Notes under the pieces: model-generated
Database searches by the model: none
Seen by the model: only the letters and a program-made list of their open reading frames with translations
Told to the model about the DNA's origin: nothing
Shown: positions 8,126 to 64,000 of the stretch, piece after piece
Layout of the letters: every line of letters starts with the position of its first letter
Numbering within the stretch: position 1 is the stretch's first letter
Source: Ruditapes philippinarum
Taxonomy: Eukaryota
Length of the DNA: 64,000 nucleotides
Direction: 5' to 3'
Assembly: GCF_026571515.1 (NCBI RefSeq)
Contig: NW_026863604.1
Coordinates: 62,001-126,000 of the forward strand
Translations under genes and position numbers: made by a program

Positions 8126-11100
8126 TCAAACGTCGAATTCTGTTCCACTATCATTTGCAATGAGATTATTTCTATCCGACATCGAGATAACGGCATCATC
8201 TTGGTCACGTGTATAAACCGCTGTATAATTACCAAGAGTATCACCCCTTGCTGCCCTCCGCTCACGCATACGACGGCGACATCGTCGGACGGTAAAGAAA
8301 GTAACGGTAATAAGTATTAGTGCCCCTACGACTGACACCAAAACAATAAATAATGTCCTTGATAACGATGATCCACACTTTAAATCTTCCGGTGCCATTT
8401 CTAGTAGATTTTTGTTTCTCAAATTTGATGGGTCTTCACATCTGATGATAAATAAAACATATCTCAAATAACTAGAAGAACATGTTGAAACAGGTGATTA
8501 ATTGCTTTTTAATTGAAAATATAACATAATCATTTATTTAAAGGCAAATGGTGTACACTAAGGTAAAAAAAAAACATTGCAAATATCTTATCAAACATTT
8601 ATCAATAAATAGGCATTTTAAAACACATCTTTCGTGAATCTGAATAAAAAATAAGCATTTCTAAAATGTGAATATCACACCAAGAAATCAAATGAATGGG
8701 GTCAGTAAGAACGTTTTTGTAATACCATAGGAACAAGTATAAGTTATTTTTAATGTAATATATTTATCTTGCAAAAATATGTGTTACGATCCATCCATCA
8801 TATTATATGTTATTTTGGTTTTGGAGTGATATATGTGGATATATTACCTGGCAAGATTTTATATCACCCGAGCCGTTAGGCGAGGGTGATATAAAATCTT
8901 ACCAGGTAATATATCCACATATATCACTCCAAAACCAAAATAACAATTTTATTACCCTTCCCATGCCGAGTAAGATTTTAAAATAAATCATTGCTGTTTC
9001 AAACTTGTAACGTCGAGATAAGATTCCCTTTAGGGTACCTCTTCACCACAACATGACGTCACATAAATACATGACGTATTTGCTTTCGTACCTAACGAAT
9101 GTAAACAAGAGAAAAGGGGTAGTCTGTCGAAGACACTTTTTTGATATTAATATCAAGCATTGGCGAGGCCATTTTTGTTTTCAATACTGATGAGAATATT
9201 CATCATTACTTTCTTTTGGTAAATATTTTTCATTTGACATTTAAATAGTGCTTGTATATCGGAATTTACACCGCGCAAAATCGAACCGTATGCGCATCAC
9301 CATCACGCATGTTGTTTACAACGTGGGGTACCAAACGGGTATATTTAGGTGTGTATATTACCCGTCTGGCTCGGTAATATCAATTTCTTTCGGCGGATCA
9401 ATATCCAATCAAAAAGGTGGAACAAATCTGGAAGGGTAATAAATACTTATAGTACTTACATGAAGGTATAACTCTTCTCCTTCAAATCATAGTCATCAGT
9501 GAGGATCCATCTCATCTTACAATCACATTTCAGTTTGTTATTTGTCAAATCAATCACTTTCAGCTCATCCAGCTCGTCGAGAGGAAAACTTTCTGCATTG
9601 AATCGCTCTATATCGTTGTTCCTATGTATACGAATTACAAAATATTTTTTCTGGCCAACTAGAAGCAAAAGACACAAACATTTGATGTGTCATTGAAAAC
9701 CTCGTCCTAGAGTTTTACAGCAATGGACAACTATGATTATCATCATTCAGTATTAAATATAAGTATCATATGATAACACAACATATGTAAATTTACTAAT
9801 AAAAGTGCAAAGCGTCCCTTCTTAGCTAGCTTTTTGCTTTGCGGCATATCGGCACAAATGGTATAAAGTAACGTTTGATCGGCCCCATTGAAATGTATTG
9901 TATTTTCTTTTGCACTAACTAAAGATCTAAAACCGTATAAAAAATTTCGAGATTGTTAAGGAAGTCGCCAAATTAATAAGTTAACGAACTTATGCACGCA
10001 TGTGTGCAAACCCTCCCACCAATCTAACTCAATGATTGACTGAATGACTGACTGACGGACCGACAGACAGACAGACAGACCGACCGACCGACCGACCGAC
10101 CGACCGACCGTCTCACTCACTCACCTTACGTACTCACTAACTTTAATTGTACAGAACAATATGGTAACATGTTATGCTATCAAACACTACATATAATCAC
10201 AGATCAACTTATTTAATCTAAACAACCGATTAACTTATCAAAAAATCATATTAAGATTTCAGTATGCAAATACTTTAATCAAGATCCAGTATTGTCAAAT
10301 AATCTCTATTTATAATCTATATATCACTAACGTATCTTTATAAAGCAAATATATATATGTATATAAGTTTACATACACATGTAAAGAATAATTATCTTAT
10401 ATTTCAATTCATTCTGTTTGAAATTTAAACACAAAAGATACACGATACACAATCTCATTGGTCAATACATGTTTTGAAAAACAAACACTAAGTATTCAAC
10501 CATCAACTATAGTTGAATATGAAAAAAATCTGCTGTAGAACAACGCTTTATTCAATATTAAAATGATAAAATAACAAAGTTAAATATTGACGCATGTTTT
10601 TATATGGACTTAGAGCAATAACAGTAACAAGGGGGAAAAAGGAGAAAAATTGTACTTGTTACCTTAGGTACAGTTTTTGTAAATTATCTGCGTTGTTTAT
10701 GATATCATCTCTAATTTGAACCTTTTCCATTCCATTATTCTCGAGAATCCATGACACGAGTTCAGGCATGTGAGGAATCTCGTCCAATACCCTGATTCTA
10801 TTATGACTCATGTCTAACGTCTTAAGACTCACAAGCATACGGAACGAATCCTCCTTGAAACTCCCTATCTTGTTCCAACTTAAATCCAAGTGTTCCAAAG
10901 GGGGTAAGTCAAGGGAGCCCGCTTCCAACTCGCCTATTTCACAATGAGATAGGTCTAAAATCTTTATAGAAGGAAGTTCATAGAAAGTGAACGTATCCTT
11001 TTTTATATGTCTTATAGGATTTCTTTCCATGTTTAAATATTTCAACATCTTCAAATAATTGAACATTCTTTCTTCCAAATCTGGTCCAAAGATAAGATTT

Positions 11101-11441
11101 TTGGACAAATCGAGTGTCACTAGATTTGTAAAATGGTCAAATGCATCTCTTTTAATCTTATATATTTGATTGTTTGACAAATTTAATAATGTCAATGCAT
11201 TACCTACCATAGGGTAACCAGTGAAGTTTATATTACTTATATGATTGTTTGATAAATCTAACGTTTCCATGTAAGAAGGGATGTGGTCTCCAGATGGTAT
11301 TTCTGTCAATCCTACACCGCTACAGTTAAATGTATTTTTACTGTTGTCACATTCCCCATATATACTGTCCGACGTTGCCGTCAACGCAAAGACAGACGCA
11401 GACAGGGTGAGAAAAACAGACCACATGCCGGAATTTGCCAT
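8126..11441 (-). CDS. Single-pass leucine-rich-repeat receptor-like protein, paralogue 1 (signal peptide, ~10 LRRs, LRRCT, TM, short tail without TIR), 418 aa
   Basis: Coding exons complement(10663..11441, 9460..9621, 8126..8441), all GT-AG, both introns phase 2, total 1257 nt in frame. LxxLxLxxNxI repeats, LRRCT (CDC..W...CEDP..L...C), hydrophobic TM followed by RRCRRR, C-terminus EFDV. A splice acceptor at ~11456 implies a non-coding first exon (candidate donor ~11719). Confidence 0.9.
8808..9443. mobile_element. Non-autonomous element: ~138-bp hairpin plus a 14-bp inverted-repeat pair
   Basis: Near-perfect palindrome at 8808-8945. TTTATTACCCTTCC (8948-8961) is inverted at 9430-9443. Lies in intron 2 of LRR paralogue 1. 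Confidence 0.65.
10035..10140. repeat. Compound tetranucleotide microsatellite (TGAC/GACA/GACC/CTCA)
   Basis: Directly visible. Confidence 0.85.
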
Positions 11442-12911
11442 TTTATAGTTACAAACTGAAATGAAAACAAATCATTTTAACTCTTCGATTTGATGTAGTC
11501 AAACAATTAATAATTGTGTTGTAACTTGATATAACTTATATAATAGTAAGAAAAATATTTATACAATACTCAGTAGTTTCAAATAAATGGATGTTTAGCC
11601 TTTAATTTATGTAATATGATATAAAATAATTTCTATCATAAGTAATAAATTATACTGTAATCAATTTACCACACATAAGAATTTTTTTTTTAAAAAAAAG
11701 GAAGAAAAACTAAACTTACCAAATTACATAGATTCTTTTTAAAGTTAAGCCATTAACACATTGCATATTGTTTTTCGATGTAGAGGATGACGTTATTTCA
11801 AACATCACATCTATATTTGTCATTCATTCGACTGAGGCCCTACTTTAGAGATTGCTGTACCCTGATATCTTTCAATAATTTGATAAAAGTCATGACTTTA
11901 TTTGACGCATTTTGTGTAAATTGTTAAGTTATCAATTTGTAAGCATAAAAGCCATGTATAAAAGTTGTGTATAGGAAAATAGTCAATTTTGTATCTACAA
12001 ATATGAAATAACCGTTTTTATCCAACATATACATAAAATTAGCGAACGAATAATAGTAAAACATACCAAACAAAAAAGTCATTTCCTTTCAAGGTCCTCC
12101 TCAATAATTTTGTTATCATGGTCAAAGTTTAAACACACTGATAATCGGTTATTATAATAGATATTACCTGTGCGATTAGCATTGTTATGATTCTATCTTT
12201 ACATCTACAAAATTATCAATATGTCAGTTTATAAAATACCATTTATGTTACCTTTTATAAATGGTAACACAATGAACTGCTTTTAAGATTCAGTATTGAT
12301 TTCAACCAGCAGCCGTGGGGTACTGTTCAGTGTGACTGTGCGTGTTTTCGTGTGGATGTGCTTTTTATGATAGTACAGTAATTAAAAGGAACCTTTATCC
12401 TGATATCTGCCGTTCTACGGAAGGTTCAACAGCACATCTGAACAGTATATTATCTGAGTTAAAAGTTTGTCTTATTTAAAAGAAATATTTATAGAAATGT
12501 AAGAAATGACCAACAAACGAGCGTTTCCACTTAAAATGATTTTTTTTCTTTTTTCATACATATTTGTGAACAGAAAATTCAGTTTTCAGGATCAGCTTAT
12601 TTGACTTTTAAAATTGTTATAAATATATAGAAATTAAAAACAAATATTGTTTAAAGAAACAAGAATAATGCTGAAACATGTTTTACTCATCTGGTTACCG
12701 AACTACATTTTCATAACTTATATATCTGACATTACTATATAGCTACATGGTAACAGTGCCAACTGTAAGACCATTATTAGTTTTTATAATCCTTAGTAAG
12801 TTACCCTATCCTGAAAACATTTTTTTATATTTTGTGGTATTTTATCTGAGACAATAACTTTCAATTTAGAGTCGTAAGATCGTGTATCCAAGGTAGTTTT
12901 CATCCAAATTA

Positions 12912-15046
12912 TTAAACATCACATTCTACATTTTTGTCATTTTCCAAGAGATGTTTATCATCCGGTAATGACACTGTAGCTTGATCATCATCATCGCGAA
13001 TATATACTGCTGTGTAATCACCACCGCTGTCATCTTCTGCAGCTGCTCTCTTCAACTTCTTCCGACGCCGACGGTTTCTTATTATAAAAAAGCCTGATAG
13101 AGAAAACCCTACAAATAATACACTGCATATCAGCAAGATAAAGAGAGTTTTCACCGTATGATGATTGCCGCATATTAAATCTTCGTTACTAAGTGCCAAC
13201 AAATCACGATCGCTATTGCTGGATGGATAGGAACATCTGAAGAAGAAAACAAAAAAAAAACATAAGATTAATAAAATGCAACATATTTGACAGTCCTTAC
13301 TAGTAAAGTATAAATGATAAAGAAAATGTTTGAGAATTCTCTTTTTTGTGTTTTTTTAAATTTACATTTCTTCCTTTATTCACTTTCATTTGTGAACTTT
13401 CAAATTGTGAAAAGTTTTATTTAAATGATGCCTAAAAAGGATAAGATATTGACCTGCTTTAGAAAGCGGGCTAATTTCGGGATTGTGGCTTTGTTCTCAT
13501 TTTTAATTTCAATGACTATTCAATTAATTGTCCTAAAATGATATATTGATCCAATAAACACTCGAACCGTACCATGACTTTCCCATAATCAAATGTTAAT
13601 GTTACTTTGCAATTTTTTGTCAGATGATTCGAATGAAAGCTGAAATAACCGCTGTATGATCACCTTTGCATCGTTGGTCAACATTAGGCAAATAATGGAT
13701 GATGACTATTTTGACCTAGTTTATGGTTAATTCCGAAAGATGTGCCAATCTGGTAATACCGGAGTAAAATATATATTTAAAAAACTGAGTATTTAGTGAA
13801 AAATTAAAAATATCAAAGTTATCTTACTCGAATGTGAAACTTTTCTTGTCAAAATTGTAGTGTCCAGCCTTTATCCACCTCATTCGGCAGTCACAGTGCA
13901 GTCTATTGTTTGACAAGTCAATCAGCCAAAGTGAATCCATCTGGAGCGGTAAGCTGTCAGCAGTGAATCGCAGAATATTGTTGTGTCTGTGCAAAATCCA
14001 TTGTTAACATGTATTAAATTGGAATTTAACATTTTATCAATCATTGTACATTTATTAAATATAGAAAATTTAAAGATACGAAGCTTTTGCTAATCGCAGT
14101 TCTTAACTTGTAAAGCTTTACTTATTCTGTTAAACGGTAACTTGCTTTAAAGAAATACATGTCATATATACTTTAACTAACACAATACGTCAGTTACTAG
14201 AATAAAAATAAGAGTGCATTGGGTTTAGTTTGAAAAAAGTTTACATTTGTTGCAACGATTTACGAGTATTACTTACCTTAAATACAATTCTTGCAAGTTA
14301 TCCGAAAAGTCTTCAATTCGTTTTTTGATGGCGATTGTTTCTATTGCATTGTTGTCAAGACTCAGTATGATCAACTCCGGCATGTATGGCATTTCATTTA
14401 GAACTGTAATCCAATTATGACTCAAATCCAGTGTCTTCAAACTTGGCATCATGTGAAATGAGGATTCTTTAAATGCAGCAAGTTGATTCCAACTCAGGTC
14501 AAGATATTCAAGTGATCGAATTTCCATAGACTCACTCTCAAGTTCTTTGATTTCACAATTAGTCAAATCCAAATAAGTCACCGACGGATACTCCAAGAAG
14601 TTAAAAGTATCAGAATGAATCACTTTAAGTGGGTTATGGCTTAGCTTAAGGTGACGAAGCCGTCTTAAATCAGACAAATCCATGTCTTTTAAGGTATGGC
14701 CAGAAACCAGATTATTTGAAAGATCAAGGTATAAAGTATTGTTCAATGATTTAAACGCATTGCTACTTATCACCGATATCCTGTTGTGCGACAAGTTTAA
14801 TGTCAAAACTGAATAGCTTAATTCATGGTAATTTAAGAAAGAGATGTTCACTAGGTTGTTAAAAGAAACGTCTAATGTTGCTATGTTTGATGGAATATAG
14901 TCAGTTTCAGGTAATGTCAAAAGTTCTTGACCACTGCAGTTGAAAATATTTTCATTTTGAAAACACTTTGTAAACTTACTTGAAGCAATGTCCGTTGCAA
15001 CAACTGTTGAAAATGTTATAACAATACACACAATCTTTGAAAACAT
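12912..15046 (-). CDS. Single-pass leucine-rich-repeat receptor-like protein, paralogue 2, 417 aa
   Basis: Coding exons complement(14277..15046, 13828..13986, 12912..13236), total 1254 nt, with the same intron positions and phases as paralogue 1. The start ATG at 15046 (MFSKIVCIVITFSTVVA, signal-like) follows an acceptor at 15061. Exon 2 reads HNNILRFTADSLPLQMDSLWLIDLSNNRLHCDCRMRWI. TM followed by RNRRRRKK; C-terminus ECDV. Confidence 0.9.
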
Positions 15047-16520
15047 TTCGGAGTTTTGTTCTGGAAAAAAGAGAGCAAAGCTTGTTATTTTCCATATAGA
15101 TATTGCAGCATTGAACATTTATCATGTTGCATATTATATAACGCATTTTATGGTGCACAGCATGTTAGCATGTTTACATTTTTATTTTACATTCAATAGT
15201 GTGTCGGACAATTAATATAATATTATAAAAACTAGTAAGATATTTGAAATAAAAAATTACAGTACAATAAAGTCAGGACAAATTATACTGATGTGTTAAT
15301 AAAAGTAAGAGCATGAATGATGTCATGCTATTGTGTTAACTGTATTTTTCTCCCGTGTAATCGGCAGGCTGACTCATGGTTTGAGGCCCGGCCTGAAATT
15401 TCACACTTTCCGAACATAACGCCATGCCATGTTAATCGTCGTAAACCATCTTTGCCATGCTGTTGAGGCAGATACATGTACACGTGTTTGCGTTCTAAAC
15501 GATTACCGAACAAAAATTATTTATGTAATCAAAATTCGAAATTCTAAGGTGAAACATTGCTTGATAAAATAAAATAACGTACAAAATAGTACTAAGATGT
15601 ACTGAGATTTTGTTTTCAATTTGTTATACATCAAAAGAGAATCTATGTCAAATTAAAGTATAACAAAAAATACAAATTCTTGACAAAAATATGACGATGA
15701 TGCATAGAAAATTGATACACTTTTTTGTTTTACCCAACATAGATTAAATATACTTAAATATAAGTTTAAAACAAAATTTATTAACATCCTAAGTGTTCAA
15801 CTGTCAGTATTTGATTAAACATGATTTGTGTTCAGTACAGGGCCTGCTGATGTTTGGTTTAAATGATAAAATATTTTGAAGATTATACTGTGATAACAAC
15901 ACGTTTGATTATCTATAGCTTCAAACATTAACTTGTTAGGTGGGAAAACTGGATACAATGCACACAATGTTAAAGCAATAAAAATATAAAAGTAAAACAT
16001 CTTTCGTATCTTTTTTAAGCTTCCTTTGCATTTAATGTCTTTTTTGCTGATTTTATTTGTTGTTGTTTTTTGTTTGTTTGTTTGTTTAGTTATAAGTTCG
16101 CTAATGTATAATCTATGAAATTCATATTATGCATTAAAGTAACTGATAAAAGATTAGAAATTTTAAAACCCAACTTTTACCCTTGTCATACACGAAGTCC
16201 GTCTTTTTACGATCGAAAATATTTTTAAAAAGGAAGGAACTAAGTTTTCCTTTTTTTCTGAATTCGACTAAAATCCATTTTGATAGTGAACATTAATTCC
16301 CATACACCGTTAAAACAATCGTTCTCGTCAATCTCCTCAATTATACATTTAACGAAAATATTCATCTTTTTAGAGGGGCGGGTACTGAGAGGAATAAAGA
16401 TGATATTTAAAAAAAACACATATTTACATTCTTTATTTTTTATCTTTTAAAGTTGGAAACACAAATGAGTGCTGGATTTTTAACATATTGGCATTCGATT
16501 TGATCTTAAAAGTAACCCAA

Positions 16521-17464: not shown

Positions 17465-17747
17465 NNNNNNNNNNNNNNNNNNNNNNNNNNNNNNNNNNNN
17501 NNNNNNNNNNNNNNNNNNNNNNNNNNNNNNNNNNNNNNNNNNNNNNNNNNNNNNNNNNNNNNNNNNNNNNNNNNNNNNNNNNNNNNNNNNNNNNNNNNNN
17601 NNNNNNNNNNNNNNNNNNNNNNNNNNNNNNNNNNNNNNNNNNNNNNNNNNNNNNNNNNNNNNNNNNNNNNNNNNNNNNNNNNNNNNNNNNNNNNNNNNNN
17701 NNNNNNNNNNNNNNNNNNNNNNNNNNNNNNNNNNNNNNNNNNNNNNN
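17465..17747. other. Assembly gap (N run)
   Basis: Run of N. Confidence 0.99.
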
Positions 17748-18625: not shown

Positions 18626-19044
18626 GTGCATTATTACCCGATATATGCACAGCACAAGAAAAACGAATGATTGTACGTCATCGTATAACGTAAAATATGA
18701 CGTAAATAAACCAAATGACGTTAGAAGAATTACCTTTTCGCTAAATGTAGTTTAACATATTTTATCAATGCTCTTTTTTATTAGCATGTATTAATGGAAA
18801 TATATATTAATTTTTCCTGCATTGTAGTATAATAATGCACGGTTTATCGTATTAATCACACAGACCTATCGGCCTTCGTAATTATATTCCTGCGCATTTG
18901 AACTCGAAACGTGCATCATTCTGCAACAATGCACTCAAAATTGATATTTATGTCCTAATATCAATTTTGAGTGCACTAATGTAGAATAATGCAGGGTCGG
19001 AGTTCAAATGCGCAGGAATATAATCACGAAGGCCAATAAGTCTG
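18626..19044. mobile_element. Non-autonomous element: 11-bp inverted-repeat pair followed by a ~184-bp imperfect hairpin
   Basis: GTGCATTATTA (18626-18636) pairs with TAATAATGCAC (18830-18840). The hairpin arms run from cagacctatcggccttcgt (18861) to acgaaggccaataagtctg (19044). Confidence 0.6.
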
Positions 19045-20460: not shown

Positions 20461-20648
20461 ATTTTAGAAATCAAAAGTAGGCTGTGCCGAAGTAATTAAT
20501 TTTCTAAAGATACTGATTTATTTAACTTATGTGAACATGCTTACATGTTCAATATTTTAAAAACATTATAAAATTTCTGAAAGGATAGCTCGTTATTAAG
20601 TTACTAGTTATTAATTATAGTCCACATTGTAATTTTAAATTAATAAAA

Positions 20649-20885
20649 TGAGCCGTGTCATGACAAAACCAACATAATGGGTTTGCGACCAGCGTGGAGC
20701 CAGACCAGCCTGCGCATCCGCGCAGTCTGATCAGGATCCATGCTGTTCGCTTACAAACCCTATTACAGGTAGAGAAACTGATAGCGAACAGCATGGATCC
20801 TGATCAGACTGCTCGGATGCGCAGGCTGGTCTGGATCCATGCTGGTCGCAAACCCATTATGTTGGTTTTGTCGTGACGCGATTCA
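20649..20885. mobile_element. Fold-back MITE, ~237 bp
   Basis: ~100-bp inverted arms (tgagccgtgtcatgacaaaaccaacataatggg...). Four more copies occur in the window. Confidence 0.9.
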
Positions 20886-21356
20886 AATATCAATTTGATA
20901 TCCCAAAAGAGAAACGGGAAATATTTGCATTAGAAAGTGAAGACGACTCAATCATAAAAATTAAGATCAATTCATATCATTTATCAAAAGACATATTTTG
21001 TTTAGTGTAATTTTTGTTAGATATTTTTTATCTTAAAGTCATAAATTTACCAAATATAAAATTGCAATATCAATTAAATCTTTCAAATTTTTAATTCATT
21101 CTCTGCTTCAAAAATACCTTTACTTAAAATGACAATTGTTCTGCAAAATCGTACCTTTAATTAAAGTGACAATTGTCTTGCAAAATCGTACGTTTAATAA
21201 AAGCAAAATTAAAAACGGTTTACTGCTAAACTCAACTGAAATTGCATTATTCGTGTTCTTTTTTTTTTTGCTTTTTTTTTTGTTTCTCAGTATTACATTT
21301 AGTTTCAAAAAGAATATAAAAAGTGCGTAAATCATCTTTATTTGTATTTTATCATA

Positions 21357-21490
21357 NNNNNNNNNNNNNNNNNNNNNNNNNNNNNNNNNNNNNNNNNNNN
21401 NNNNNNNNNNNNNNNNNNNNNNNNNNNNNNNNNNNNNNNNNNNNNNNNNNNNNNNNNNNNNNNNNNNNNNNNNNNNNNNNNNNNNNNNNN
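21357..21490. other. Assembly gap (N run)
   Basis: Run of N. Confidence 0.99.
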
Positions 21491-22272
21491 TAGATTCTTT
21501 TATTTCATGCAATTAATACTTATAATCATATTCTTTAAACAGAAACACATTTGAATTGCTTTCTAAAACATAGAACTAATATTATTACTTTATTATTGAG
21601 AAGAGACAATACTATTACCTTATGTTTTTATATCTGTAAAAATATCTTTGAGTATTTGCCTGTTTTTCTGTCAGTTTTCATTTTTTTTATAGACAATTAA
21701 TTATTTTCTTTTAAATTAAGTGCACTGTAAATAAATACCCGTACACTAACAAAACTGTTTAAGATTGATATCATTACAACTTCGTTCTAGTTTGAGCGGT
21801 CTTTTCAGTTTCCATTTTGACAATTTCTTAAAAAATATTTATTCCCAACTAAATAACCAGCAGGAAATCATAAAAACGAAAGAGGGCTTGATAGAGTTCA
21901 TATAATCGTATTTTATAAGAGAAAAAGCACCAATTTATAGAGAATCAAACAGGCATGGGTCCGAACATCTTTTAGTTATTAAACCGTTGTCATGAGAAAC
22001 ACACATATATGTGTAAGTAAGCAAGCTTGTTGAGAACACAATATAGAAAGGAAGTTTGAAAAGAGAAGGGAAAGAAGAAACAGGCAAACGTATATGATCT
22101 AATATTTAAATGTTAAATACTTTCATTGATAAAGCAGTGTGCTCTTTTTGAAAAAAAAATGACAAAAGGTTATCGTTCCAGTAGAATAGAACATTAATGC
22201 CGTTTTTTATATTTTTAGGTAGAAATAGACAGAAACCAAGGTGTGTGAAATAATATCACTCTGCCAGAACTG

Positions 22273-22473
22273 ATGGATATATCAAAAATGTGTGTCAGGA
22301 TATTGAAAACAGTAGTGTTAGTTTTATTATTTGTGACTTTGGCTTACAGCCTGTGTGCAAGTGTCGGTTGGGTTGGGTGTGTGGACAATGGATGTTCAAA
22401 ATATGAAGAAGGAACATGTCAAAATGTTGGAAGAAGACCAAGAAATATATGTGTTTGCACTATAGATCACTGA
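22273..22473 (+). CDS. Secreted cysteine-rich peptide precursor 1 (66 aa, defensin-like six-Cys mature region)
   Basis: Hydrophobic signal ending in AYS, then a 40-aa mature region with C-x7-C-x4-C-x7-C-x10-C-x-C. A clear paralogue at 29275 shows synonymous-type differences. Splice acceptor at 22218 in the 5' UTR. Confidence 0.85.
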   Translation: MDISKMCVRILKTVVLVLLFVTLAYSLCASVGWVGCVDNGCSKYEEGTCQNVGRRPRNICVCTIDH

Positions 22474-25400
22474 CATATAAATATGAGACCTCGTGCTTTC
22501 ATTGTTTTCGCTGATGGAATTACTTCGATCGGACCAAATTGAGTTTGAAGATAGACTTGAGCAACGGATGAATGATAATTTTGCAGAATCCGTTTAGTCT
22601 AAAATAGAATCTAAAACTTGGAAATGGAAAAATGTATCATTATATCATCTCAAATACATGTAAAAAGAACTCATTAAAAAAGGAAGTGTTAAAGTAATCA
22701 AGATTTTGATACTGACATAATCTAACATCTAAATATATTTAAGATAAGACATAGAAAAAAGAAGAAAAGGATGCTACGAAAAAAAGAAAAGAACACGTTT
22801 TCAACCGCTCGCTGTCTAAACTATGCCTACAAATTAACAGGTCTGAACTTATCATGTAAAGAAGAAAAACATTATTCTATTTGCCTTTCTGTTTAACTTT
22901 CAACATCTTTCCATGAATATAGTGTTTCATCGTTATGTTTGTTTTCTCTATTACATTTGTTCAGAATTCATTGCATTTAATGGATGAATTTTGATAATAT
23001 TTTTGTGTTATTATATACATTTTTATTATTTTCTTACGCTTTACATGGGATAGAAATCTGTTTACTCAATATTTTGTTTGAGCTGTTGCCATTCATGCAT
23101 TCTTACAAGAAATTATGTCTTTAAATAAAGTAAGAAATAAAAGTTAAATTAACATTGTCATTAAAGTGTTCTTATCTTTCACTGATCTCCCCTGTTTGCT
23201 CTTGCCATTTGCATATACTAACAACAGAAAAGGGGAGGACCCTTGGAAGCTTTTAAAACAAAATAACATGAAAATTGCAAAGGTCAGTTTCACAAGGGAT
23301 CATCAGAAAAACACAAAATGCTGTCCGCTATCAGCGGCTTTAGCGATTTTCAACAGCAGTATTAAGTCTTCCATATTTTATGTGCTGTTACCAATGATTC
23401 CTAATGTCCTGAAGAAATATTACAACACAAAAGTGACGAACGGACACATTTTTATTACTGCCATTGATATAATTTTTAATCTTTAACTGAACAATTTGCT
23501 ATGCAATGGATCGTAATAATGGTCATAATTTTACAACCATTTCATTGATAATTATGTGTCATCTGTGTTATGCGTTTAACATGTCTTAATTTAGATTGCT
23601 TACACAACATTTATTTTAAAACACTTGACTGCCACGTCCGACAGGGAGAATACACTTGCCTATTTCTGGAAGGTTCGTGATATTGTAATATACAGTATCC
23701 GTTCAAATGTATATGGTTGTCAACAGAAATCAATTCGAGCAGGCCTCATTCACCCTTTGTATACATGGCGACTGAATATGTTTTTCATAAATTGGCATTG
23801 CGTTCTATACAAATAATTATAAATAATAAATAACAAAAAAAAGCATTTTATTTACATTATCATAACAATTATATTATTAATTAGGATAAATATTGAAACC
23901 ATCGTTGACAAATAGCCAGCATTTAAAGTATAAAGCAAGATATAAATATATACATACGTTTTTTCGTATACACATTTTTGGAGGTTTGATGAACAAATAC
24001 AACATGTAAATACATACAACAAATATTCTGTTCAACAGATATCGAGATTGACAGATTTTAGAATACAAAATGTATTAAAAAGAAACAACAGAAACGTTTA
24101 TGTAGTTAATAAATATAACGTAACCCTAGGAACATGTGTTTATTCAAAATTAACAATCAACAGACAAAACATATGTGTGTCAATCCTATTCAGCTGATTC
24201 TTCGCCAATGTTGAACTTTTGCAAATTATTTTAACTGACAACAAGTTCGAGTTGAAAAATTCATAATCTATTTGCAATTTAATTGAATTTATCTGCAATA
24301 AAATTGTAATGAAGTACATGTAAATAAACAGCATCGTAAGTTGCACAAATTCCATTCATCTTGTAGAAGAAAACTGTTTCAAATTCAACAGGCCAAAGGA
24401 CCATGTGTACATTTTTGTATATAAACAGCAAGTCGTGTGAGAAATCTGGAAAAAATATTTGTATTGAGAAATAGATAAAATGGTGCGTATCGTGTATCAA
24501 TCGGAATGTCCTCGGCTATTATTTATAATAACCTCGGAAACAATACAAAGTGAAAGTAGTTCTACCCCGTGATTTCAGATGTTAAGAGATTATCTTCGAT
24601 AATGCAAAACGAATGTTTATATCCAAAGAAAAATATAGTCTTATTCGGTACATTTATGATTGAAAATATGTCTGACAACCATTTTTAATTTATTTGACCA
24701 TTGATGTACAATTTCAAACAAATCCGACTAAATGTCAACAGGTTGGCATTTTGTACTTTCTGTTTCTACAACCATAATGATAAGTATATAAATAATGCAT
24801 TGTTTACTGTTATATCTTTGAACTTACTTACTTTAGGTGGACGACTTTTACTTGATATTTCTGATTACCATTTGTTTACATGTTTAGTTTCTTAGTGTAG
24901 GTTAGACCGAAATACCGTATCCGTTCTGTGTATTCCTACTATTGTGTTCGAGGTCCTTATCCGAAGACTGACGGAAAGGGCAGAAAAGTTGCGATTGTGT
25001 CGTGTGTCTGTCAATTACATGGCGATGTCCAATGTAAGTAGATTACAAGCCAATCTGCATGTCTGAACTTATATTTTTAAGAAAGCTTTTTCCGCGTTTC
25101 AATTTGCAATAAACTGTTACTGCCTGTCACAAACATATGTGTATAAATATGAAGACTGCGGTTTTGCTTCCCTTTTGAGAATATAAAGATCACAAAGACT
25201 TGTTAGTTAACATAATGATTCTTTTATTACCTTATTTGATTTATATTAACACATCTCACAAAGGGTCTCTCTTCAGTAAAATTACTTCAATACATATTTT
25301 CAGTTCTTCCTTATCACTTTTACAACCTTATTTGATTAGTATTTATTAACACATGTCACAACAATGTTCCTTTTCGGTAAAAGTACATAACATACTTTCT

Positions 25401-28179
25401 GTTGTAATGTTGACAGCAAATTCAAATATTTATTATATCTATACATGTGTGAAATATATAATTAATTTTATAACTTTTGAAAAAGATATGAAGCAAAATT
25501 ATTTTGTGAAAAAGAAAAAAAAAGGAAAAAGTCTCTGTTTTTGGTTCAGTGACACGCCAGTAAAAATCTACTATATCATTTATTAACAGGACGTTTGTTA
25601 AAGTTAATTTATTACAAAATTATTCATGTAACCTAATTTACGTGATATTTATGAATGAACCACTTGACATGCCGGTAATATGTAAATTCTTCTGCATAAG
25701 TTAAGAATATAAATCATGCCCGACATTTGAAAATTGTAGAACAAAATCATTTTCGATTTCGGACGTCTTTTTAATAGTTATCATTATAAATAATAAAATC
25801 GTGCAATATAGTTTTAAACTACATGTATTCCATATTAAACATATATATAATATAAATGCTCTGTTCCAGTAGGTCTTTTTTCATAATGTTTTTTTTTTTG
25901 TTTAGTTTCAACATATTCTCAGAGATATATATATTTCAATTTACAAAAGGCACAACGCATTTCAAATATTCTTTTAAAAACATGATTAGAATGAAAACAC
26001 GATATACATCTACAGACAGAAGACCACTCCCAAACAAATGAATAAACGCCGTACGCCGTTTTCCTTTTTTTACCAGCCAGTTAATTACAAATCCAGTTGT
26101 GAATGATCTTAATACCATCGCACTATGCATGTCGCTCTCCTATCATTGCAACACTACAAAAGATGCCGATTCAGAAGGGATGGTTGTTTAGCCCCCAAAT
26201 GTTTTACGGTCACAAAATGTAAGTTTTACAACATTTCAAACTGTCATATTTATAAGAAGCCTAGTTATTATTATTCTATTAGTAATATGCTTGGAAATTA
26301 ACAAAAAACTGTCATTTAATGCAATTCTATCTGTTATATATTAAAAAAGATGTAAGATAATTTACATGTACTAGAATGAAGATATATCATTTCATTAGAT
26401 CATGACAGTTTAAATATTTCTTAAAACATTATCATTTGTCACCTACTTTTGAATAATGAATTGCAAAATATTTTATATAGGGCCATGAATTTTAGATTGT
26501 ACAATGTAACAATGAATGCATTCACTGCGAAATGTGAAATGATGAATTTTGTACGTTTGCTATGACGCCGGAATATTTGACCAACTAACAATAATATAAA
26601 TAATGTTAATTATAATATAATAATTGGCAAATCAATTTATCCGAAGATGCTTGAACACTTCAAACCATTCTCCAATGTTAATTAATTAAAAAAAATCAAA
26701 GTCAAATATTAAACTTTTAAATTCATTAGCATTAAACAACAGTTCCAAGCTTTTTTTATCGTTTGTGAATATCATTCATACTTTGATCTGTTTTAATTTC
26801 TTTTTTAAATGATTTCGATTAATTCAAAATATTATTGTTTGCTTTGTTTTACTAATACTAGTAATACCCAGTGAAGAAGGGTCACAAAGTGCTTTCATGA
26901 ATTTGTTAAAGGTGGTTTAACTAATGATATGATCTTCAGATTTAGAATAACGCGCGCGTTCATTGCTCTTTTTCGTCCAATGAGGAGGCCTAAATTTGAT
27001 TTTTTTTCTGATTTCGTATAAATTCTCTCCAATAGAATTTATTTTAAGTTTTGAAACATGTGTTTAAGCGTGCGAGCGCCTAAGTAGATAAACAGCTAAG
27101 TTAATTACTTTAAGTCTAAAATAGCCACAGTCACTCCTACGTCGCTTCTTTTGAGTTGTTTATATTGTTTATTTTGTCATTATTATTAGCGTCTATTTAC
27201 AACGTAAACAAAATATTTCAACTATTTGCTAATGAATTCTACAGATATAGATCTATAATATGTATATTTATTCGACTTTTGTATCATGTCTACATATATA
27301 ACAGTAACAATCTTTATTTAAATCTAATCATTGCATTTGAATGAATCAATAAAACATACATACCAATTAACATTTAATGCAACAACACAATGGCTAAATT
27401 GTAAAAGATGAAATTGAGGATTTAAATCATCATTTAAAGAACATCACAAAACAATAGAAAGCTCATGTATCGACAGTCTAGCGGTCAAATCAAAGCACTA
27501 AATACAATGATTTCATTAATTCCGATATAAGCGGTAAACAAAAATATGCTAACAAAACCATCTTTGATTTGACTTCATATAGTATTTGTACAGTCACACG
27601 TGACCTATCTGTTAAAACAAAACACACCTTTATTTTATACATAAAGTATAAAGTGACATTCTGCTTATTTTTGTCATTGTTAAGTTGAGATGAATTGACT
27701 ATATATTTCAGAAGATTTACTGTTATAATGGAGATTGACCAACAGTTGATACTGGAAAATGTTTTGTATAAAATATAAATCTGCCTAAAATGTAAAAAGA
27801 AAGTCCCATTCTTTTTTATAAATTGACAGATAAATTCTGATGAATATAAATGTCACACAAGTTATATATCATTCATGCGAAGTAAATCATAATATTAAAA
27901 AGAATTACAGCATAATGTAAACTTATTTTGACTTTCACCTGTTCACTCACTAGATACCATAAGATGGGCATAATACCACTTTAAAGAGAATAACAATGTT
28001 TCAGGCATAAGTTCAGAGACTTGACAACAATCTACGCAATTGGGCTATTTAAATCCATCTCTCGTTCTCAAAAGCAGTCTTTCGTTCCGAATATGGCAAT
28101 CAACCTTATGGCTACATTTATAACATCCTTGCGCCTAGGTGAAGTGAATAACTACTAGTAATCGTAATAATTTGTTGGT

Positions 28180-28405
28180 GTTTCAGTGATTAAGACGACA
28201 TCCTTGCGGTCACATGGTTGCCTTTCAAGCGGGAAAACCTCACATAACCATTCGTGCAATTTTTCAGGGATGAGCGGGCACCTGAGAAAAACCTTCGGCC
28301 TTCCTTTGTCGAGCACGTGATCCAATCTAATTATATTCGAATCCACGGAAAAGAAGAAAATGTTATTTAGACTCAACAACCTTAACCACTTGGCCATGCA
28401 AGCCA
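28180..28405 (-). mobile_element. Diverged tRNA-derived SINE (second family)
   Basis: The minus strand begins tggccaagtggttaagg (A-box) and resembles the plus-strand copy at 45424-45640. Confidence 0.55.
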
Positions 28406-29274
28406 TGTAAAGTGAAACAATGTAATGTTAATACCTTGCCAAAGGAAATTAGTATAGGATATGAACCAGACTTCTCCGTCTCGGAGCTCCTACCACTGAA
28501 CCACTGCCAACTATTGCAACAAATAAGAATGACTTTTTCAGTAATCATCCGAACACTGTAGAAGACCATCCCTTGTGGTCAAATTATCTTTTGTCCTCAA
28601 AGATAATATAACTATCTGCGAAAAACCAATCCTATGTTTTTAGCAATTTGTATAATAATAATAAGTTGTAAACAATAAATTTAGTACGCGGAAGTAGTTA
28701 GAACGTAGCTTAATTCCGATTCGTCCAGGTCAGAGCACGATCGCCGTTATATTTAAATATGAAACGATTCAACCGAAATAATAATTCAACCGAAAATTAA
28801 TGTTAAGTGCAGTACCTTTAAAATAGCACGCTGTATAGATGATAAAATACATATTCATGCTATTTACCGACTAACATTCTCTTTACCACACTCGTTTCAT
28901 ACAGATAGACGTGCATGCTACTTCTACTTTGAGTAAGTTGGGTGTTTTTATTATTTTTTTTCATAAAAGTATTCTTGTGATTTTTTTTATTCATTTATAT
29001 TTTCCCCACAACAAGTGATGAATTTACAGCTTTATTTTATTTTATACTATAACATTTATCTTATATTATAAAGCTTAACAATTGATAATTGATTGTGGAT
29101 GGTTAATAATAACAATGATATTTTGTTTGAAATTATGCAATATATTGTGCTCTTATGTTTCTTTTTTTTCTTTTTTCATTCACCGATTTTAAAAACGATT
29201 CCGGTAAATGTTATTCTTATATTTCATACATTCATTGCAGGTATACATCTGCGTTGAATACAACCTAGAATAAA

Positions 29275-29475
29275 ATGGATTTTACACAATTATTTCGTGA
29301 AATTTGGAGAACGTTATTTCTAGTAATAATATCTTTTTCCTTCGCACTTTGCTTATGTACAAGTATTGGTTGGGTTGGATGCGTGGATCATGGTTGCAGT
29401 GACATGGAAGGTGGGAAATGTGAAAACTATGGGACAAGACCTCGTAACCTTTGTGTGTGTGTTATACAGTCTTGA
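29275..29475 (+). CDS. Secreted cysteine-rich peptide precursor 2 (66 aa)
   Basis: Same length and cysteine spacing as 22273..22473, with 26/40 identity in the mature region (GWVGCVDxGCS, GxC, RPRNxCVC). Acceptor TTGCAG at 29240; candidate upstream donor GTAAGT at 28933. Confidence 0.85.
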   Translation: MDFTQLFREIWRTLFLVIISFSFALCLCTSIGWVGCVDHGCSDMEGGKCENYGTRPRNLCVCVIQS

Positions 29476-30859
29476 TGCGAGTGGAAAATAGGATTTATTT
29501 TTCATTTAATTTATTTCATTTTTTGTGCCAATTGTTTCCGAGGTAAAAGACCAAAAACCGGCAATGTTCTGTTTTAATGGAATATTTTCAAAAGTGTATT
29601 TGGGCCTTGAAGATCAACACAGCGATGATGCAACAAAATTGAGTTCAAAACTGTTTCAGACACAAAATTCAAACAACAAAAAACAAACATTAGAATAAGA
29701 TTTTTACGCAAAACCTAATAAATGACCAAATGTTCACAATGTGGATTATTTATCTAGTAGACTTATGCTTCCACGCTTGGTAAAAAGAGAGTATGTGTGT
29801 GTTTTCTTCAAGTTTTGAGCATTCGAGACATATTGTTATGATAATTGTTAATATGCTTAAACGTTTTGATGAAGATAAAATGCGGAATCATGTGATTATG
29901 TGAAAATTTTGACAATGTATTGCTATTTCGGATATGTCAATTAATAATAATACATGTTTTACGGGTATTTATTCTCACGCTTATTTAAAAGTGCATAAAT
30001 CTGTTAAGAAGAATGAATGCCTGAGTGAATGAATACGGAATACGTGCTATTTTTTATTATTCGAGACTGTTGTTAAAATAGGTCAGGTCACTGGGTTACT
30101 TGCAATAAACGTCTTTGAATATTTTAAATTCATGCTTTTGTTCAGTTTAAACATTAATTATCATGTAGCTTTCAGTATTTCATCAATCATTGTTATAAAA
30201 TGAAACACGATACTTATCATGAACGGAATTAAAAAACTTTTTTGTGAAAAAAAAAATGTTGTCATTATTTTTATTGTGACGATCCTACGTAAATCTTTGC
30301 AATATTGTATGTATGAATGACTTATGACTTCGGAAATTCATCCCATGCAATTTAAATTCAAAAGAATGTAAAGCAACTGTAACTAGTCTTTTAACAGTTA
30401 CGGTATTTTGAAAGAGTCAATGCCTCTTTTAACTGACATGTACATGAATACCTTTTCTTGTTTTTTTAAATTGTTTTCCCAAGGGATAGGCACGCACTAA
30501 ATATCGGTCAAATTCATATTGCAAAGCGAGGTCGTTAAGTGTAACACATTTTAGATGGTATGATTTGTAGTGGAAATGTTTAGCGCGCACGTGGCCTGGT
30601 AGTAAAAAGTTTAAAATGTCAAAGTTCAAGTTTATCATCCTATCCATATATAATGTATAAATGTCCATGCACAACTGTGTCCAAATTATTGATAAAGTGG
30701 GCTACTTTTCAAGTATCGTCGCTCTGTGTTCCCTATCTTCATTATATGATATATTATTAAGTAAGGTCTTTAATACAAAATGTCTTTAACGTGACAAAAC
30801 ATTTGTTACTTTTTAATACGTCCAGCGGTATAAACGTTTTTGTGTTTTGTTGTTTTGTT

Positions 30860-33879: not shown

Positions 33880-36800
33880 ATGAAAATGATAAACAAAAGC
33901 AAGATTGTTTGCCAGAATACAAACATGTTGACATTTTTCAAACCTTTATCTTGTCCGCTGATATTAATACTAATTCTACTCCATGGTGAGTTTAGGCATT
34001 AACTAGAAAAATAAATAACAATAAGAATTGATTTTCCTATGTGACATTTATAATAGGTTCTATTTTTAAAGGTGTTAAAATTATGTTGTGGAGTCGAGAT
34101 AATTTGCAAGTTTAACAAGTTAATTAATAAATTAATAATTTAATTACATCAGAGGGATATGCTACTTAGCAATCAATTCTGACTAGCAGGCGCTTATTCT
34201 TTCTGTTGTCTGTAAATTATTTTGTGACAATGTATGTAAAAAGAAAATATTTGTTTTGTTGAACTTTGAATGCCATGAAGGATATTTTGTATGTAAATAC
34301 TTGGCAATCTCTTGGATTAGACCCCTATGTATTTTTTCAGGAGTAAAACTTGTATATAATACACTAAAAAAAAGACCCCGGGGTCTAATCCAGGATATAG
34401 CCCAAATAGTTATATGAAAAAGGCAAAGCCTCAAAGCAAGCACGATTAACTTTGACCGTGAAATAGTAATAAGTAATGGTTCATTTTTATTTCACATTTC
34501 CGTTTTAAAATTGTCATTTGGTATTTTTTACACTGTTTCCATTGATTCTGGTTCCCTGTCATATTATCAATTGATTATGGTTCCCATATAAGTGCGCAGG
34601 ACACCAGTCTACGCTTCTGTTTTCAATCAGAATACCTTTGCTTTTATCGTTATCTTGTAATTCGAAAAAGTTGCGATGTGTCAGTTCGGTAATTTGGATG
34701 AAAGTTTTCAAAACCATCACTATCAAGCAGGTACTCGCGTAATCGTAAAGCTCGCTTTGCGAGCAGGCCCTTTGAGCTCGCTATAAAAGTAACATACCGT
34801 TACTTGGGAACCTAATGAAAATTCTTCATTTATAATTAATTTTACTATCTAATACGCATAAATTTCTCAATAAAACTAGTACTTCTCCATATTTGAATTA
34901 TTTCTTCAGGGGGCTTATCAGCAGGGGCAAGTGCGTCTCCTCAGGATGAAACAGTCAATGTTATTGAATGTGAGCGCTTAGACAAGAATGACCCAAATTG
35001 TGCTAATGGAGGCTGTTACCAAAAGTGTGAGGGCTCACCCAAAGCTTACTGTTTTGCTTCCTGGAAAAATGGTAAGATTTGTAATTTAATATCAGTTGTT
35101 AACATTTTAGAACTAAAATGGCTAAATGTGTCTTTTTCCAATACATTGAATTGTAAATTAAAAAATTGTTTTTGACCCTAAAGGTCATTTGAAAGATATA
35201 TTTATTTTTTGTAAAACTAAAATTAAAATGAAGCTGTATTAAGAATTTAACTGCTTGTTGATTATTGTACCACTGAAATGAATGTTAACTTTGATCTTAT
35301 TCTAGGTTCTGTAAAATATGATATTAAACATCGTAGTGGACATACTGTGTCTCTTGTGTGTCTATTTACAGAGTATCTATAAGGGATACATAGTACATGA
35401 GAATTATAAAGCCGACCAAGTAGCTTTAAAATTTCTTTGTTTCTAATTTCAGGCACAGATGGCATGGTGGAATATGTAATGAAAGGTTGTTGGTCAGTGG
35501 AGGAGAATTGTGTAAACAACTCGCAATGTGTGCAGTCTCCATCAATTAAACATCTGAATTTTTGTTGCTGTTCTGACCCAAGATGTAACAACAATGTGAA
35601 AAATGTTTACTATCCACCCACGTCACCACCAACTAGCACTGGTATTTGATTACTTAATTGTCTTTTAAAGTGATGTTTTATCTAGATATAGATATCATTA
35701 ATAGCTATGAACAATGACTGTGAATTAAAGCTGTGATGCTTAATAAGTTATTAAGTATGCCTTCTTTATTTCTAATATATAATTTTCTGTATTGTTAAGG
35801 TGTATTCTGTCAGATGTAGTTTTCAAATTGTCTGTGGATTTTTTTATATGGACCTGTCCAGCTTCCATTATTATTTTTAGGGTATCAGAAAATTTCATCA
35901 GCCAACATTGTAGAGCCTGGTCAAAATGTATAGTTGTGCAGGCTGGCCTGGATCTATACTGGTGACCAAGGCTTACCATTTCTGGTTACAGCAGGATAAT
36001 GGTTTAAACAAAGTGATTTTTATTGTGACTTTCTGAAGGGGAAAATATAGCCCATTAAAAGAATAAAAACTGGTTGAAATTAAACACCCAACAACTGTGA
36101 ATGTAGCAAAGTCAACTTCCATTTTAGAGGAAAATAAAGCATGTTTTGCTTTGGGAAACAGCATGTATAAGGCATAGAAAAATCACTGATACATACCTTA
36201 ATATAGACTTAATACAGACTTTTTAATTCCTAACAATGTCTTTCAATCTCAAAAATTTTTTGGTTGTGGTTTTCAATTTATTTCTAATCATGTTTTTCAG
36301 AAGGCAACACTGCGATGAAAAAGCTGCCCAGTAGTAAACTGACAAAAACCCTCATTTATTCCATTGTTCCGTTAGTTGGAGTTGCTGCAGTTATTGTTCT
36401 AGTTTTCTGGATGTGGAAACGATTCAAACGGCAAGAGTATGAATATCATGAACAGTTACCCACAGTTGACCCAATTCATAATATGCCACCTTCGCCTCAT
36501 CCTCCTCGACCTTTGAAGCTTGTTGAGGTACGAGCCCGTGGTAGGTTTGGGTCAGTGTGGAAGGCACAGCTACATGAAGAGGTTGTAGCTGTGAAGATAT
36601 TTCCACTTCAGGACAAGCAGTCATGGTTGACTGAGCAAGACATTTATCGGTTACCTCACATGCAGAGTCATGACAACATTCTACGGTTCATTGGTACAGA
36701 GCGAAGGGGAGATAACCTGAACCTAGAGTTGTGGCTTATCACAGAGTTCCAACAAAACGGGTCATTGTGTGAATATCTGAAAGGAAACACTGTTACTTGG

Positions 36801-39490
36801 AGTGAGTTGTGTAAAATGGCAGAATCAATAGCGCGTGGTTTGTCATTTTTACACGACGAGATTGCACCAATTAGGGGCATGGAAGCTAAGCCGGCAGTGG
36901 CTCATCGAGACTTCAAGAGCAAAAATGTGCTGATCACTTCAAATCTCACCGCAGTCATTGCTGACTTTGGTCTAGCTCTCAAGTTTGAACCAGGGAAAAA
37001 CCCAGGAGAAACACATGGACTGGTAAAACATTAACTTATAAAGTTTCTTTAGTACATTAAGGATTTTTACTTAATTACATTCTGTCTCTGATAAACAGTT
37101 TTTGGAAATATTCAATGTCATTAATTGTCTGCTTATAAGCAACTTGGAACTTATAATACTTTTTAAGAATAAAACAATTGACAATGTAATAAAACTTACA
37201 TGGTTTAGTAATTAGTATGGCCCTGGTTTAGATTAAGACTTATTTAGGTCCATATACCTACCCTATTTTTTAATTGCCAACTAGAGACATTTAATACTAA
37301 TAGTAGAAAGTTAATGCATCTTTTTCTTGCACATCTGCACTAAATGTGTCATTGTGCTTGTCCAGATGTTAATTCATGAAAAAAGGTGTATTAGTGCTAT
37401 TCTTTTATAAAAGTATGTCTAAATTGGTTTCCCACATTTCATTATCTGTACTTCATATAAAGAAATGGTTAATGTTGCCTTTGACATGCCTTCCACCTGC
37501 AAGTGCAATGTCATTCGACAGTTATGTTTTGATGATAAAATTATCTGAGCCGTCATAGCATTTAGCTGTTTTACATTGCATTTAAGAAAAAAGTGCAACA
37601 AAGGTGCATGTTCACCAAAATCTATAGATGCATGTTTTTCTTCTTTGTTTATTAATACCTAAATAAGCAGTTTCATGCAAGAATATATATTCATACCTAG
37701 TAACCTACATATTTTTGGGTTGGATATCAGTAACAGGACTAATACTAGTGATTATACAATGATCAATAAAGCCTGTAGAAGTGTGTGTATATCAAATTTT
37801 GATAATGCATATAAACATAAAACAATTTTATGATTTTTAGGTTGGTACAAGGCGTTACATGGCTCCGGAAGTGCTCGAGGGCGCTATTAGTTTCAATAGA
37901 GATGCATTTTTGCGGATTGACATGTATGCTTGTGGACTTGTTCTTTGGGAAATCATGTCAAGGTGTACTGCAGCAGACGGTAGGCTCTTAAAATTAACAA
38001 ATAACAAGTAGCTGTTGTCAAAAGTTAACACATATTTATTTTAGCTTGATGCTGCAGTTGGGTGGTTAAGATTAACCAGCTATTTTAACAAATATAGACC
38101 ATCTTTACTTTAGTCAGTACCCTCAAAGGTGTTAATATTGGTTTATACTGATTAAATATATTAATGGTTGTTTATCTCATTACACTGTTAAAACTGTTCC
38201 CTAAGTCTGGTAATGACAGAAACTTATAGAATTGTTCATGATGTAATTTTGTAAATTTGAGTTAATGCTATATCTATTGTGATTATTTTTTGCTTGTACC
38301 ATTTAGGTCCAGTTGGAGATTATCAGTTACCGTTTGAGGAGGAGATAGGGCAGCATCCTACCCTAGAGGACATGCAAGAGTTAGTTGTCATCAATAAAGT
38401 ACGACCTTCAGTCAAGGATCACTGGCAAAAACATCCGGTATGTTTTCTTCTTGCCCATTGTTTTCGTTTCTTTTTGCTAATTTTAACATATTGTTGGGCC
38501 AATCAGGCTACTGATCCACCTAACCGACCTACCTGGATAAATTACCAGTAAATAACAATGTCTCCACAAGTGACCAACAACTTTTCCCACATAATTCCTG
38601 AATCAGTAGTTGAAGACAAATGACCATTAGACTGTATGTTCAATGATACGAGGTATCTTTTACAATGTTATATATCTTTTACAATGTTATATGGTATCTT
38701 TGGCAATAATAAGTATAGATATAACTTGATAGTGCTTTTTCTTGTGTTCAACAAAAACTTTAAAATGATTAAAAATAAAGAATCAGTGTATGTTATATAT
38801 CTGATTTATTATGTGTGTTACTTGCTTAGAAACACATTGACAACTTTAGTTTTAATGGAAGTTTTGTTATACCATAACTATATAAAAAATATACATATGT
38901 TGTTGGTGTGAGATACATGATCACATATTATGAGATGCATGATTCAATATAACATTTCTATATTTGGCAGATAATAAATTGTTCTTGATCAAAATTATTG
39001 TTCTAATCATATAAATGTTCATTCAAAATTACTTCGAATTATCAACATTTACTTCTCAAGAAACATTTTACATTATGAATATTTTAGTGTCATTAAAAAA
39101 CCTGGCATATTTTTTAAGAGAGGACAAACTTTTTTACTTGACTTGTTATAGGGCATGAAACTTGCCATAAATTCCTGCGATGAAATTCTTTTACTGAAAG
39201 ATGAGAGCAGTATTTCTTTAAAAGAATCTACATTGTGAAAATTGTTCATTTGTATTTGATTTCAGGGTCTTGATGCATTGTCATCAACAATTGAAGAATG
39301 TTGGGATCATGATGCAGAAGCACGTCTGTCGGCGGACTGTGTGTTAGAACGCATATGTCAACTCAGTAGGACAATGAATACCTCAAACCTTGCTACGAGT
39401 AACAGTGTTGTCAACTCACAACAACCTCTTATAATAAATACCAACCAGGGATTACCTCCTGTATCACCCATAGTTGTGCAGACTCTGTAA
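33880..39490 (+). CDS. ACVR2A: Activin receptor type II (TGF-beta family Ser/Thr kinase receptor), 542-557 aa
   Basis: Exons 33880(or 33925)..33985, 34910..35071, 35453..35641, 36301..37022, 37841..37979, 38307..38437, 39266..39490, all GT-AG and in frame. Signal peptide, ectodomain with CCC-x4-CN box, TM, kinase motifs [51 protein letters not shown]. No GS box. The symbol indicates the family; the A/B split is vertebrate-specific. Confidence 0.96.
34301..34405. repeat. Imperfect inverted repeat (MITE-like) in ACVR2 intron 1
   Basis: ttggcaatctcttggattagacccc ... ggggtctaatccaggatatagcccaa. Confidence 0.5.
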
Positions 39491-46170: not shown

Positions 46171-46389
46171 TGAGCTGTGTCACGACAAAACCAACATAAT
46201 GCGTTTGCGACCAGCATGGATCCAGACCAGCTGATCAGGATCCATGCTGTTCGCTATCAGTTTCTCTACTTGTTATAGGGTCTGTAAGCAAACAGCATGG
46301 ATCCAGATCAGACTGCGCGGATGCGCAGGCTGGTCTGGATCCATGCTGGTCGCAAACCCATTATGTCGGTTTTGTCATGACACGGCTCA
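46171..46389. mobile_element. Fold-back MITE (same family as 20649)
   Basis: High similarity to 20649-20885, with a small internal deletion. Confidence 0.9.

Positions 46390-52761: not shown

Positions 52762-64000
<11,239 letters not shown>

Follow-up and report, generated by a model that had tools for sequence, protein, structure and literature searches.

In this study, we describe two small genes, A and B, in a 64,000-nucleotide stretch of Ruditapes philippinarum DNA (assembly GCF_026571515.1, contig NW_026863604.1, forward-strand positions 62,001 to 126,000; the whole stretch is called the window below). They encode putatively secreted six-cysteine peptides of a conserved and apparently undescribed bivalve family, whose core, as judged from structure prediction, probably folds as a miniature version of the growth-factor-type cystine knot. 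The reading that we favor, to which we give a probability of about 0.45, combines this fold with a role as ligand of a host receptor. The coding features are as follows:

22273..22473, forward strand: gene A coding sequence, 66 amino acids, one coding exon (open reading frame (ORF) list and tblastn)
22273..22350, forward strand: predicted signal peptide of gene A, 24-26 amino acids (from its hydrophobic core; cleavage inferred)
22354..22458, forward strand: six-cysteine core of gene A, 35 amino acids (sequence and model)
29275..29475, forward strand: gene B coding sequence, 66 amino acids, one coding exon (ORF list and tblastn)
29275..29352, forward strand: putative signal peptide of gene B, 24-26 amino acids
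29356..29460, forward strand: six-cysteine core of gene B, 35 amino acids, with spacing identical to that of A

An earlier, sequence-only reading of this DNA had described the two 66-codon ORFs at these positions, and a recount agrees with it: A and B align without gaps over 66 amino acids, with 7/26 identities over the first 26 positions and 26/40 over residues 27-66, and the cysteine spacing C-x7-C-x4-C-x7-C-x10-C-x-C common to both, the motifs that it quoted, its four synonymous codon pairs, and the mature net charges (0 for A, -1 for B) were all correct. The contrast between leader and mature identity has a Fisher p of 0.005 (0.009 when Met and the cysteines are left out). Of the 26 mature residues that are identical, 15 are specified by different codons, and the mature parts differ at proportions of 0.76 for synonymous sites (pS, saturated) and 0.26 for nonsynonymous sites (pN). 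A codon model places omega at ~0.03 for the mature part; its upper 95% limit lies near 0.17 and, when the Cys codons are excluded, near 0.3. In a likelihood-ratio test omega = 1 is rejected (p 4e-7), whereas in the signal part the constraint is not significant (p 0.07). The mature part evolves under purifying selection, as the sequence-only reading had supposed. In the window, tblastn with A retrieves B at E 9e-21, the following match being at E 1.5, and the family hidden Markov model matches A and B alone among 2,901 six-frame segments; the two genes are best explained as old tandem paralogues.

Relatives were collected with profiles of the mature part. An exhaustive HMMER search of 1.84 billion proteins with the first profile gave 10 matches at E<=0.001, of which three were repeat proteins, six were genuine relatives, and one was P0001, a protein from a public set that is 98% identical to A; a second profile gave nine matches among 119 candidates, all belonging to the family and three of them new. 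The family set consists of 11 distinct peptides (A, B, and nine relatives) plus P0001. Word-index searches with one or two sequences found no match besides P0001, and the exact A and B sequences are absent from a 15-billion collection. The three repeat proteins, P0002, P0008, and P0009, do not belong to the family, being long proteins in which the match is confined to 13-17 profile positions. All three named relatives come from Sinanodonta woodiana (Unionidae); their locus tags (012349, 012353, and 012355) all lie on 130.5 Mb contigs, and the genes probably form a tandem cluster. Two of these three proteins are labeled 'Defensin' in UniRef, although neither contains a Pfam domain.

Every one of the 11 peptides keeps the six cysteines, a pair of Gly in loop 1, and an Asn, a Gly, a Pro, and an Asn in loop 4. 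In gene A the core is made of a first finger of seven residues, a ring segment of four, a heel of seven, and a second finger of ten, followed by C-x-C. Throughout the family the lengths of loops I-II (7) and IV-V (10) are fixed, the fingers carry the patterns S-x-G-W/Y-x-G and N-x-G-x-R/P-P-x-N, and the residue ahead of the finger-2 Pro is Arg in 8/11 and otherwise Pro. The II-III gap measures 3, 4, or 6 residues in one, eight, and two members, always with a Gly inside, and the III-IV gap 6 or 7. The leader is less conserved than the core in four of five compared pairs, in line with the earlier suggestion of a pattern nearer to that of a ligand than to that of a diversifying toxin. The low charge noted in that reading stands for A and B, whose cores rank with the least cationic of the set, and finds no support as a trait of the family: the core charge is +2 or more in 7/11 members and +3 or more in 5/11, so that low charge belongs to A and B rather than to the family, and the finger-2 loop is positively charged in every member. 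Most of the tree built from the 11 cores (37 columns) lacks resolution; in its single 90/90 split, A, B, and four further members stand apart from a six-residue-heel group (the three Sinanodonta peptides, P0005, and P0010). The tree lends no support to a sister relation of A and B. C-terminal extensions of basic or hydrophobic character, or N-termini of irregular form, are seen in P0003, P0005, and P0010 and may stem from gene-calling on fragments.

Pfam searches with the 11 members gave only unrelated sub-threshold matches, with no defensin family among them, and searches of PDB sequences gave either nothing or matches at E>1 to carbonic anhydrase and a ribosomal protein. A description of the family was not found in the literature, and six family motifs occur in none of the papers searched (open-access main text, outside figures, supplements, and subscription journals). 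The earlier suggestion of a small secreted family, possibly undescribed, is supported. The main risk to its novelty lies with Hyriopsis, a unionid like Sinanodonta, the source of the three named relatives; 'defensins' of Hyriopsis were reportedly described by Ren in 2011 and Peng in 2012. These published defensins may overlap with the present family; the HcDef primers, as given in PMC6672746, do not show which defensin was meant.

Regarding the fold, AlphaFold2 with the 11-sequence alignment gave a model with a predicted local distance difference test score (pLDDT) of 88 (83.7-88.0 over five models), in which strands at residues 2-5, 9-12, 22-25, and 34-37 form two beta-hairpins and no helix spans Cys II-III; a helix is likewise missing there from the two-sequence model (pLDDT 65). 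An exhaustive VIA search of 48,161 chains returned 10 matches at Z>=2, nine of which are growth-factor-type cystine knots. The best is VEGF (Z 3.4, root-mean-square deviation 2.6, 38 of 40 residues aligned), and the other eight are VEGF-B, two PDGFs, two TGF-beta2 entries, gremlin-1, and two glycoprotein-hormone subunits; the tenth match is the tick complement inhibitor RaCI1. A second VIA look with the 11-sequence model returned nothing, the Atlas structure rows for P0013 are unrelated prokaryotic proteins (TM 0.38-0.51), and 9EBE, a solved small knot, is not among the 10 matches and may not be in the library's representatives. The positions computed in VEGF-B, PDGF-B, mini-TGF-beta2, gremlin-1, and both hormone subunits agree with what we take to be the knot numbering. 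In VEGF, with ungapped ends assumed, Cys I, V, and VI of the model fall on residues 26, 102, and 104, which are knot cysteines (PMC5063151). The sequences are consistent with this register. C-x-C stands at Cys V-VI in 11/11, and P0013 carries C-T-G-R-C, the exact CxGxC signature. With the pairing presumed, the ring has 8 or 9 residues in nine members and 11 in two, and always contains a Gly; published growth-factor knot rings have 8, 9, or 10 residues (PMC3224965), and that of NGF 14 (PMC3592873, Table 1). The variation of the II-III gap between 3, 4, and 6 residues suits a variable ring and not a fixed i,i+4 helix.

Several observations weigh against the knot. The predicted template modeling score of the 11-sequence model is only 0.51. 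The Z values of the VIA matches, from 2.0 to 3.4, are statistically tied and far under the tool's mark of 8, so that the argument for the fold leans on consistency and register. The two-sequence model has no structural match at Z>=2, and Foldseek, which the sequence-only reading had proposed as a check, found nothing significant for either model. The strict C-x-G-x-C eight-residue ring occurs in P0013 alone, A and B having C-x-D-x-G-C, and none of the 11 members matches a cystine-knot family in Pfam at E<=10 (TGF-beta, PDGF/VEGF, glycoprotein-hormone (GPH), bursicon, DAN, and NGF profiles). The language-model neighbors are CS-alpha-beta peptides, at 0.80-0.84, and AlphaFold, as described in PMC12203953, may mis-pair cysteines when given mature-only peptides.

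The sequence-only reading called the cysteine framework unusual and missed its precedents: the framework fits the growth-factor knot (C-x(n)-C and C-x-C forming the ring, Cys I-IV threading it), and a knot of this size is described for sigmaS-GVIIIA, a 41-residue cone-snail peptide with ten cysteines and a growth-factor knot proven by nuclear magnetic resonance (PMC12203953), which, by analogy, is the closest precedent for so small a knot. Its knot pairs are 6-25, 11-36, and 15-38, with two extra disulfides, and its spacing is 4,3,9,10,1, against 7,4,7,10,1 in A and B. As far as it is described there, it shares with them a molluscan origin, secretion (predicted here), a length of ~40 residues, four strands in two hairpins, a Cys IV-V loop of 10 residues, and C-x-C at V-VI, and its knot core of 33 residues compares with 33-37 in the bivalve family. 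The differences lie in the ten cysteines and five disulfides of framework VIII (S-superfamily) conotoxins versus six cysteines in the bivalve core, in the strict CxGxC found in 31/36 framework VIII peptides versus 1/11 bivalve members (PMC12203953), and in venom peptides with variable loops versus a family with conserved fingers under purifying selection. A sequence link between the two groups was not found.

With the cystine-knot growth factors, as presented in PMC4079206 and PMC3224965, the peptides share the six-cysteine order, the predicted geometry, the ring Gly, two beta-fingers, and a signal peptide; unlike the VEGF/PDGF, TGF-beta, hormone, and DAN-type proteins, A and B have a nine-residue ring, no pro-domain, and no conserved interchain cysteine, and their knot spans 35 residues versus 75-97 in the nine growth-factor knots matched by VIA. 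In the inhibitor cystine knot, Cys V and VI are separated by a hairpin loop of several residues, unlike the one-residue gap seen here in 11/11. Short secreted cysteine-rich peptides encoded by tandem genes are also known as bivalve CS-alpha-beta defensins, mytilins, and myticins (PMC7168163, PMC5484132); from these, as described, A and B differ in having no anionic C-terminal extension and in not being cationic. CS-alpha-beta defensins share the terminal C-x-C (11/11) and the G-x-C before Cys IV (10/11), whereas A and B have no C-x3-C (the gap being 4), no helix at residues 10-15, and an all-beta model. The adjacent terminal CC reported for beta-defensins and big defensins (PMC7203481, PMC5484132) is found in 0/11 members. 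Finally, MgCRP-I of Mytilus (PMC4558851) is also a six-cysteine secreted bivalve peptide of obscure role, but it is described with a C-C-CC-C-C array, a pre-pro region that is conserved, and a mature part that is hypervariable, the reverse of the present pattern. Since the named knot profiles, the CS-alpha-beta helix, the terminal CC, and the MgCRP-I array all failed, we file the family under none of these groups.

We propose that cleavage of the signal would release a mature peptide of 40-42 residues, putatively secreted, with disulfides that we infer to be I-IV, II-V, and III-VI. The II-V and III-VI bonds would close a nine-residue ring threaded by I-IV, and two short beta-hairpin fingers are predicted to extend from this knot. 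The fingers are fixed in length and carry invariant residues while the ring and heel vary, which makes the fingertips the likely binding face. The peptide would most likely act on a single conserved host protein at the cell surface, a receptor, and serve as a short-range signal or antagonist. Since no extra cysteine is conserved, it would probably do so as a weak dimer or a monomer. Cystine-knot ligands are described to act via leucine-rich repeat (LRR)-containing receptors and receptor kinases (PMC4079206), and in the window LRR membrane genes and a receptor kinase gene flank the peptide pair; as LRR genes are common, these flanking receptors are only a lead for function.

The same miniature knot might instead be a host-defense effector with a conserved microbial target, e.g., a cell-wall precursor, which we hold to be somewhat unlikely. 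The probable Sinanodonta tandem cluster and the cationic members (+2 or more in 7/11, with a positive finger-2 loop throughout) resemble host-defense genes and thus count against the ligand role, and the two LRR membrane genes adjoin the pair. Moreover, oyster defensins, to go by the title of the report concerned, bind lipid II, and with so conserved a target the purifying selection would be explicable in a defense peptide too. This sits less well with A being neutral and B slightly acidic, or with the lack of a hypervariable mature region of the MgCRP-I kind. Less probable again is that the peptides are divergent CS-alpha-beta (invertebrate-type) defensins and AlphaFold is wrong about the helix. 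In this regard, the shared C-x-C and G-x-C, the C-x3-C of P0013, and the UniRef label of untraced source are joined by termicin as best Atlas match (0.82 and 0.84) and by weak Foldseek rows for ASABF (E 8.5) and a plant defensin (E 7.3, root-mean-square deviation 7.1). However, a II-III gap of 3 occurs in one member only, with Gly always inside and gaps of up to 6; both models agree in having no helix over Cys II-III; none of the 11 members has a Pfam defensin match and none of the 10 VIA matches is a defensin; and Atlas scores below 0.9 are leads only, with one third of shuffled proteins reaching 0.8.

A secreted protease inhibitor or ligand trap, in which the Arg/Pro finger-2 loop would either dock into an enzyme or cover up a growth factor, could be reconciled with the 10-residue loop of fixed length, its conserved G-x-R/P-P, and the presence of gremlin-1 and RaCI1 among the VIA matches. 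We regard it as improbable, as no inhibitor family is matched in Pfam or in PDB sequence searches and the alternation of Arg (8/11) and Pro ahead of the Pro would probably make a poor canonical P1 site. That A and B are chance ORFs or pseudogenes is scarcely credible: their frames are intact despite saturated synonymous divergence, omega is far below 1, and relatives are present in other genomes, which bears out the earlier view that the genes are real.

If the miniature knot holds, it would represent a growth-factor knot cut down to six cysteines and two short fingers, with a span under half that of the nine matched proteins, and would offer a 40-residue, synthesizable test of a minimal receptor-binding knot. 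The family, on which strong constraint acts in bivalve-type genomes and which annotation misses or tags as 'defensin', would then be a candidate bivalve signaling or defense system, and possibly a non-venom counterpart to the small growth-factor knot of cone snails. A far-reaching version, which we offer as a long shot, is an endogenous non-venom minimal growth-factor knot of molluscs, i.e., a natural heel-less mini-ligand that tunes or blocks either an LRR receptor or a type II receptor of the TGF-beta family, both kinds having genes next to the pair in the window. Such a knot may also stand for the body-peptide scaffold out of which the framework VIII toxins of cone snails were recruited.

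Upstream of each ATG there is a pyrimidine-rich AG acceptor, at 54 nt in A and 34 nt in B, and a GTAAGT donor another 206 nt and 308 nt upstream of that, respectively (chance expectation ~0.12 per 350 nt). These donor and acceptor signals 5' of both ORFs suggest a non-coding first exon for each gene:

22013..22218, forward strand: predicted intron in the gene A 5'-untranslated region (donor GTAAGT at 22013, acceptor AG at 22217-22218; from sequence only)
28933..29240, forward strand: predicted intron in the gene B 5'-untranslated region (donor GTAAGT at 28933, acceptor AG at 29239-29240; from the same kind of signals)
22673 and 23124, forward strand: ATTAAA and AATAAA, respectively, 3' of gene A (weak evidence in AT-rich DNA)
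29717..29722, forward strand: nearest AATAAA 3' of gene B (weak evidence, the motif being common in AT-rich DNA)

By the -3/-1 rule, as we understand it, cleavage behind residue 24 is as plausible as behind residue 26 in both peptides; cleavage at residue 24 would keep Cys26 on mature B as a seventh cysteine. The assembly has gaps at 17465-17747 and 21357-21490, and the latter, 0.8 kb 5' of gene A, may conceal an extra copy or the gene A promoter.

The window is AT-rich animal DNA, with these neighboring genes:

8126-11471 and 12912-15118, reverse strand: a tandem pair of LRR genes for single-pass membrane proteins whose tails are short
~34900-38550, forward strand: activin type II receptor gene, first exon not located (kinase exon compared with PDB)
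~52690-63730, forward strand: MCM6 exons, beyond the activin type II receptor gene

The LRR genes stand head-to-head with the peptide genes on their upstream side. A TIR domain is visible in neither; both tails have a common Y-T-A-V-Y and the terminus E-F/C-D-V, which we take to resemble a PDZ-binding end. The ectodomain exons of the activin type II receptor gene begin ~5 kb 3' of gene B, and the best PDB match of its kinase exon is ACVR2B (E 1e-72); activin type II receptors are a receptor class for cystine-knot ligands. Tandem repeats occur at 47594-48244 (174 bp units), 56440-57409 (38 bp), 58427-59379 (162 bp), and 61342-61739 (170 bp), and the units of 160-175 bp presumably recall bivalve satellite and transposon cores. 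A dispersed palindromic element resembling a miniature inverted-repeat transposable element has copies at 20647-20888, 46168-46391, and 51960-52158, and separate long palindromes lie at 8808-8945 and 18861-19044.

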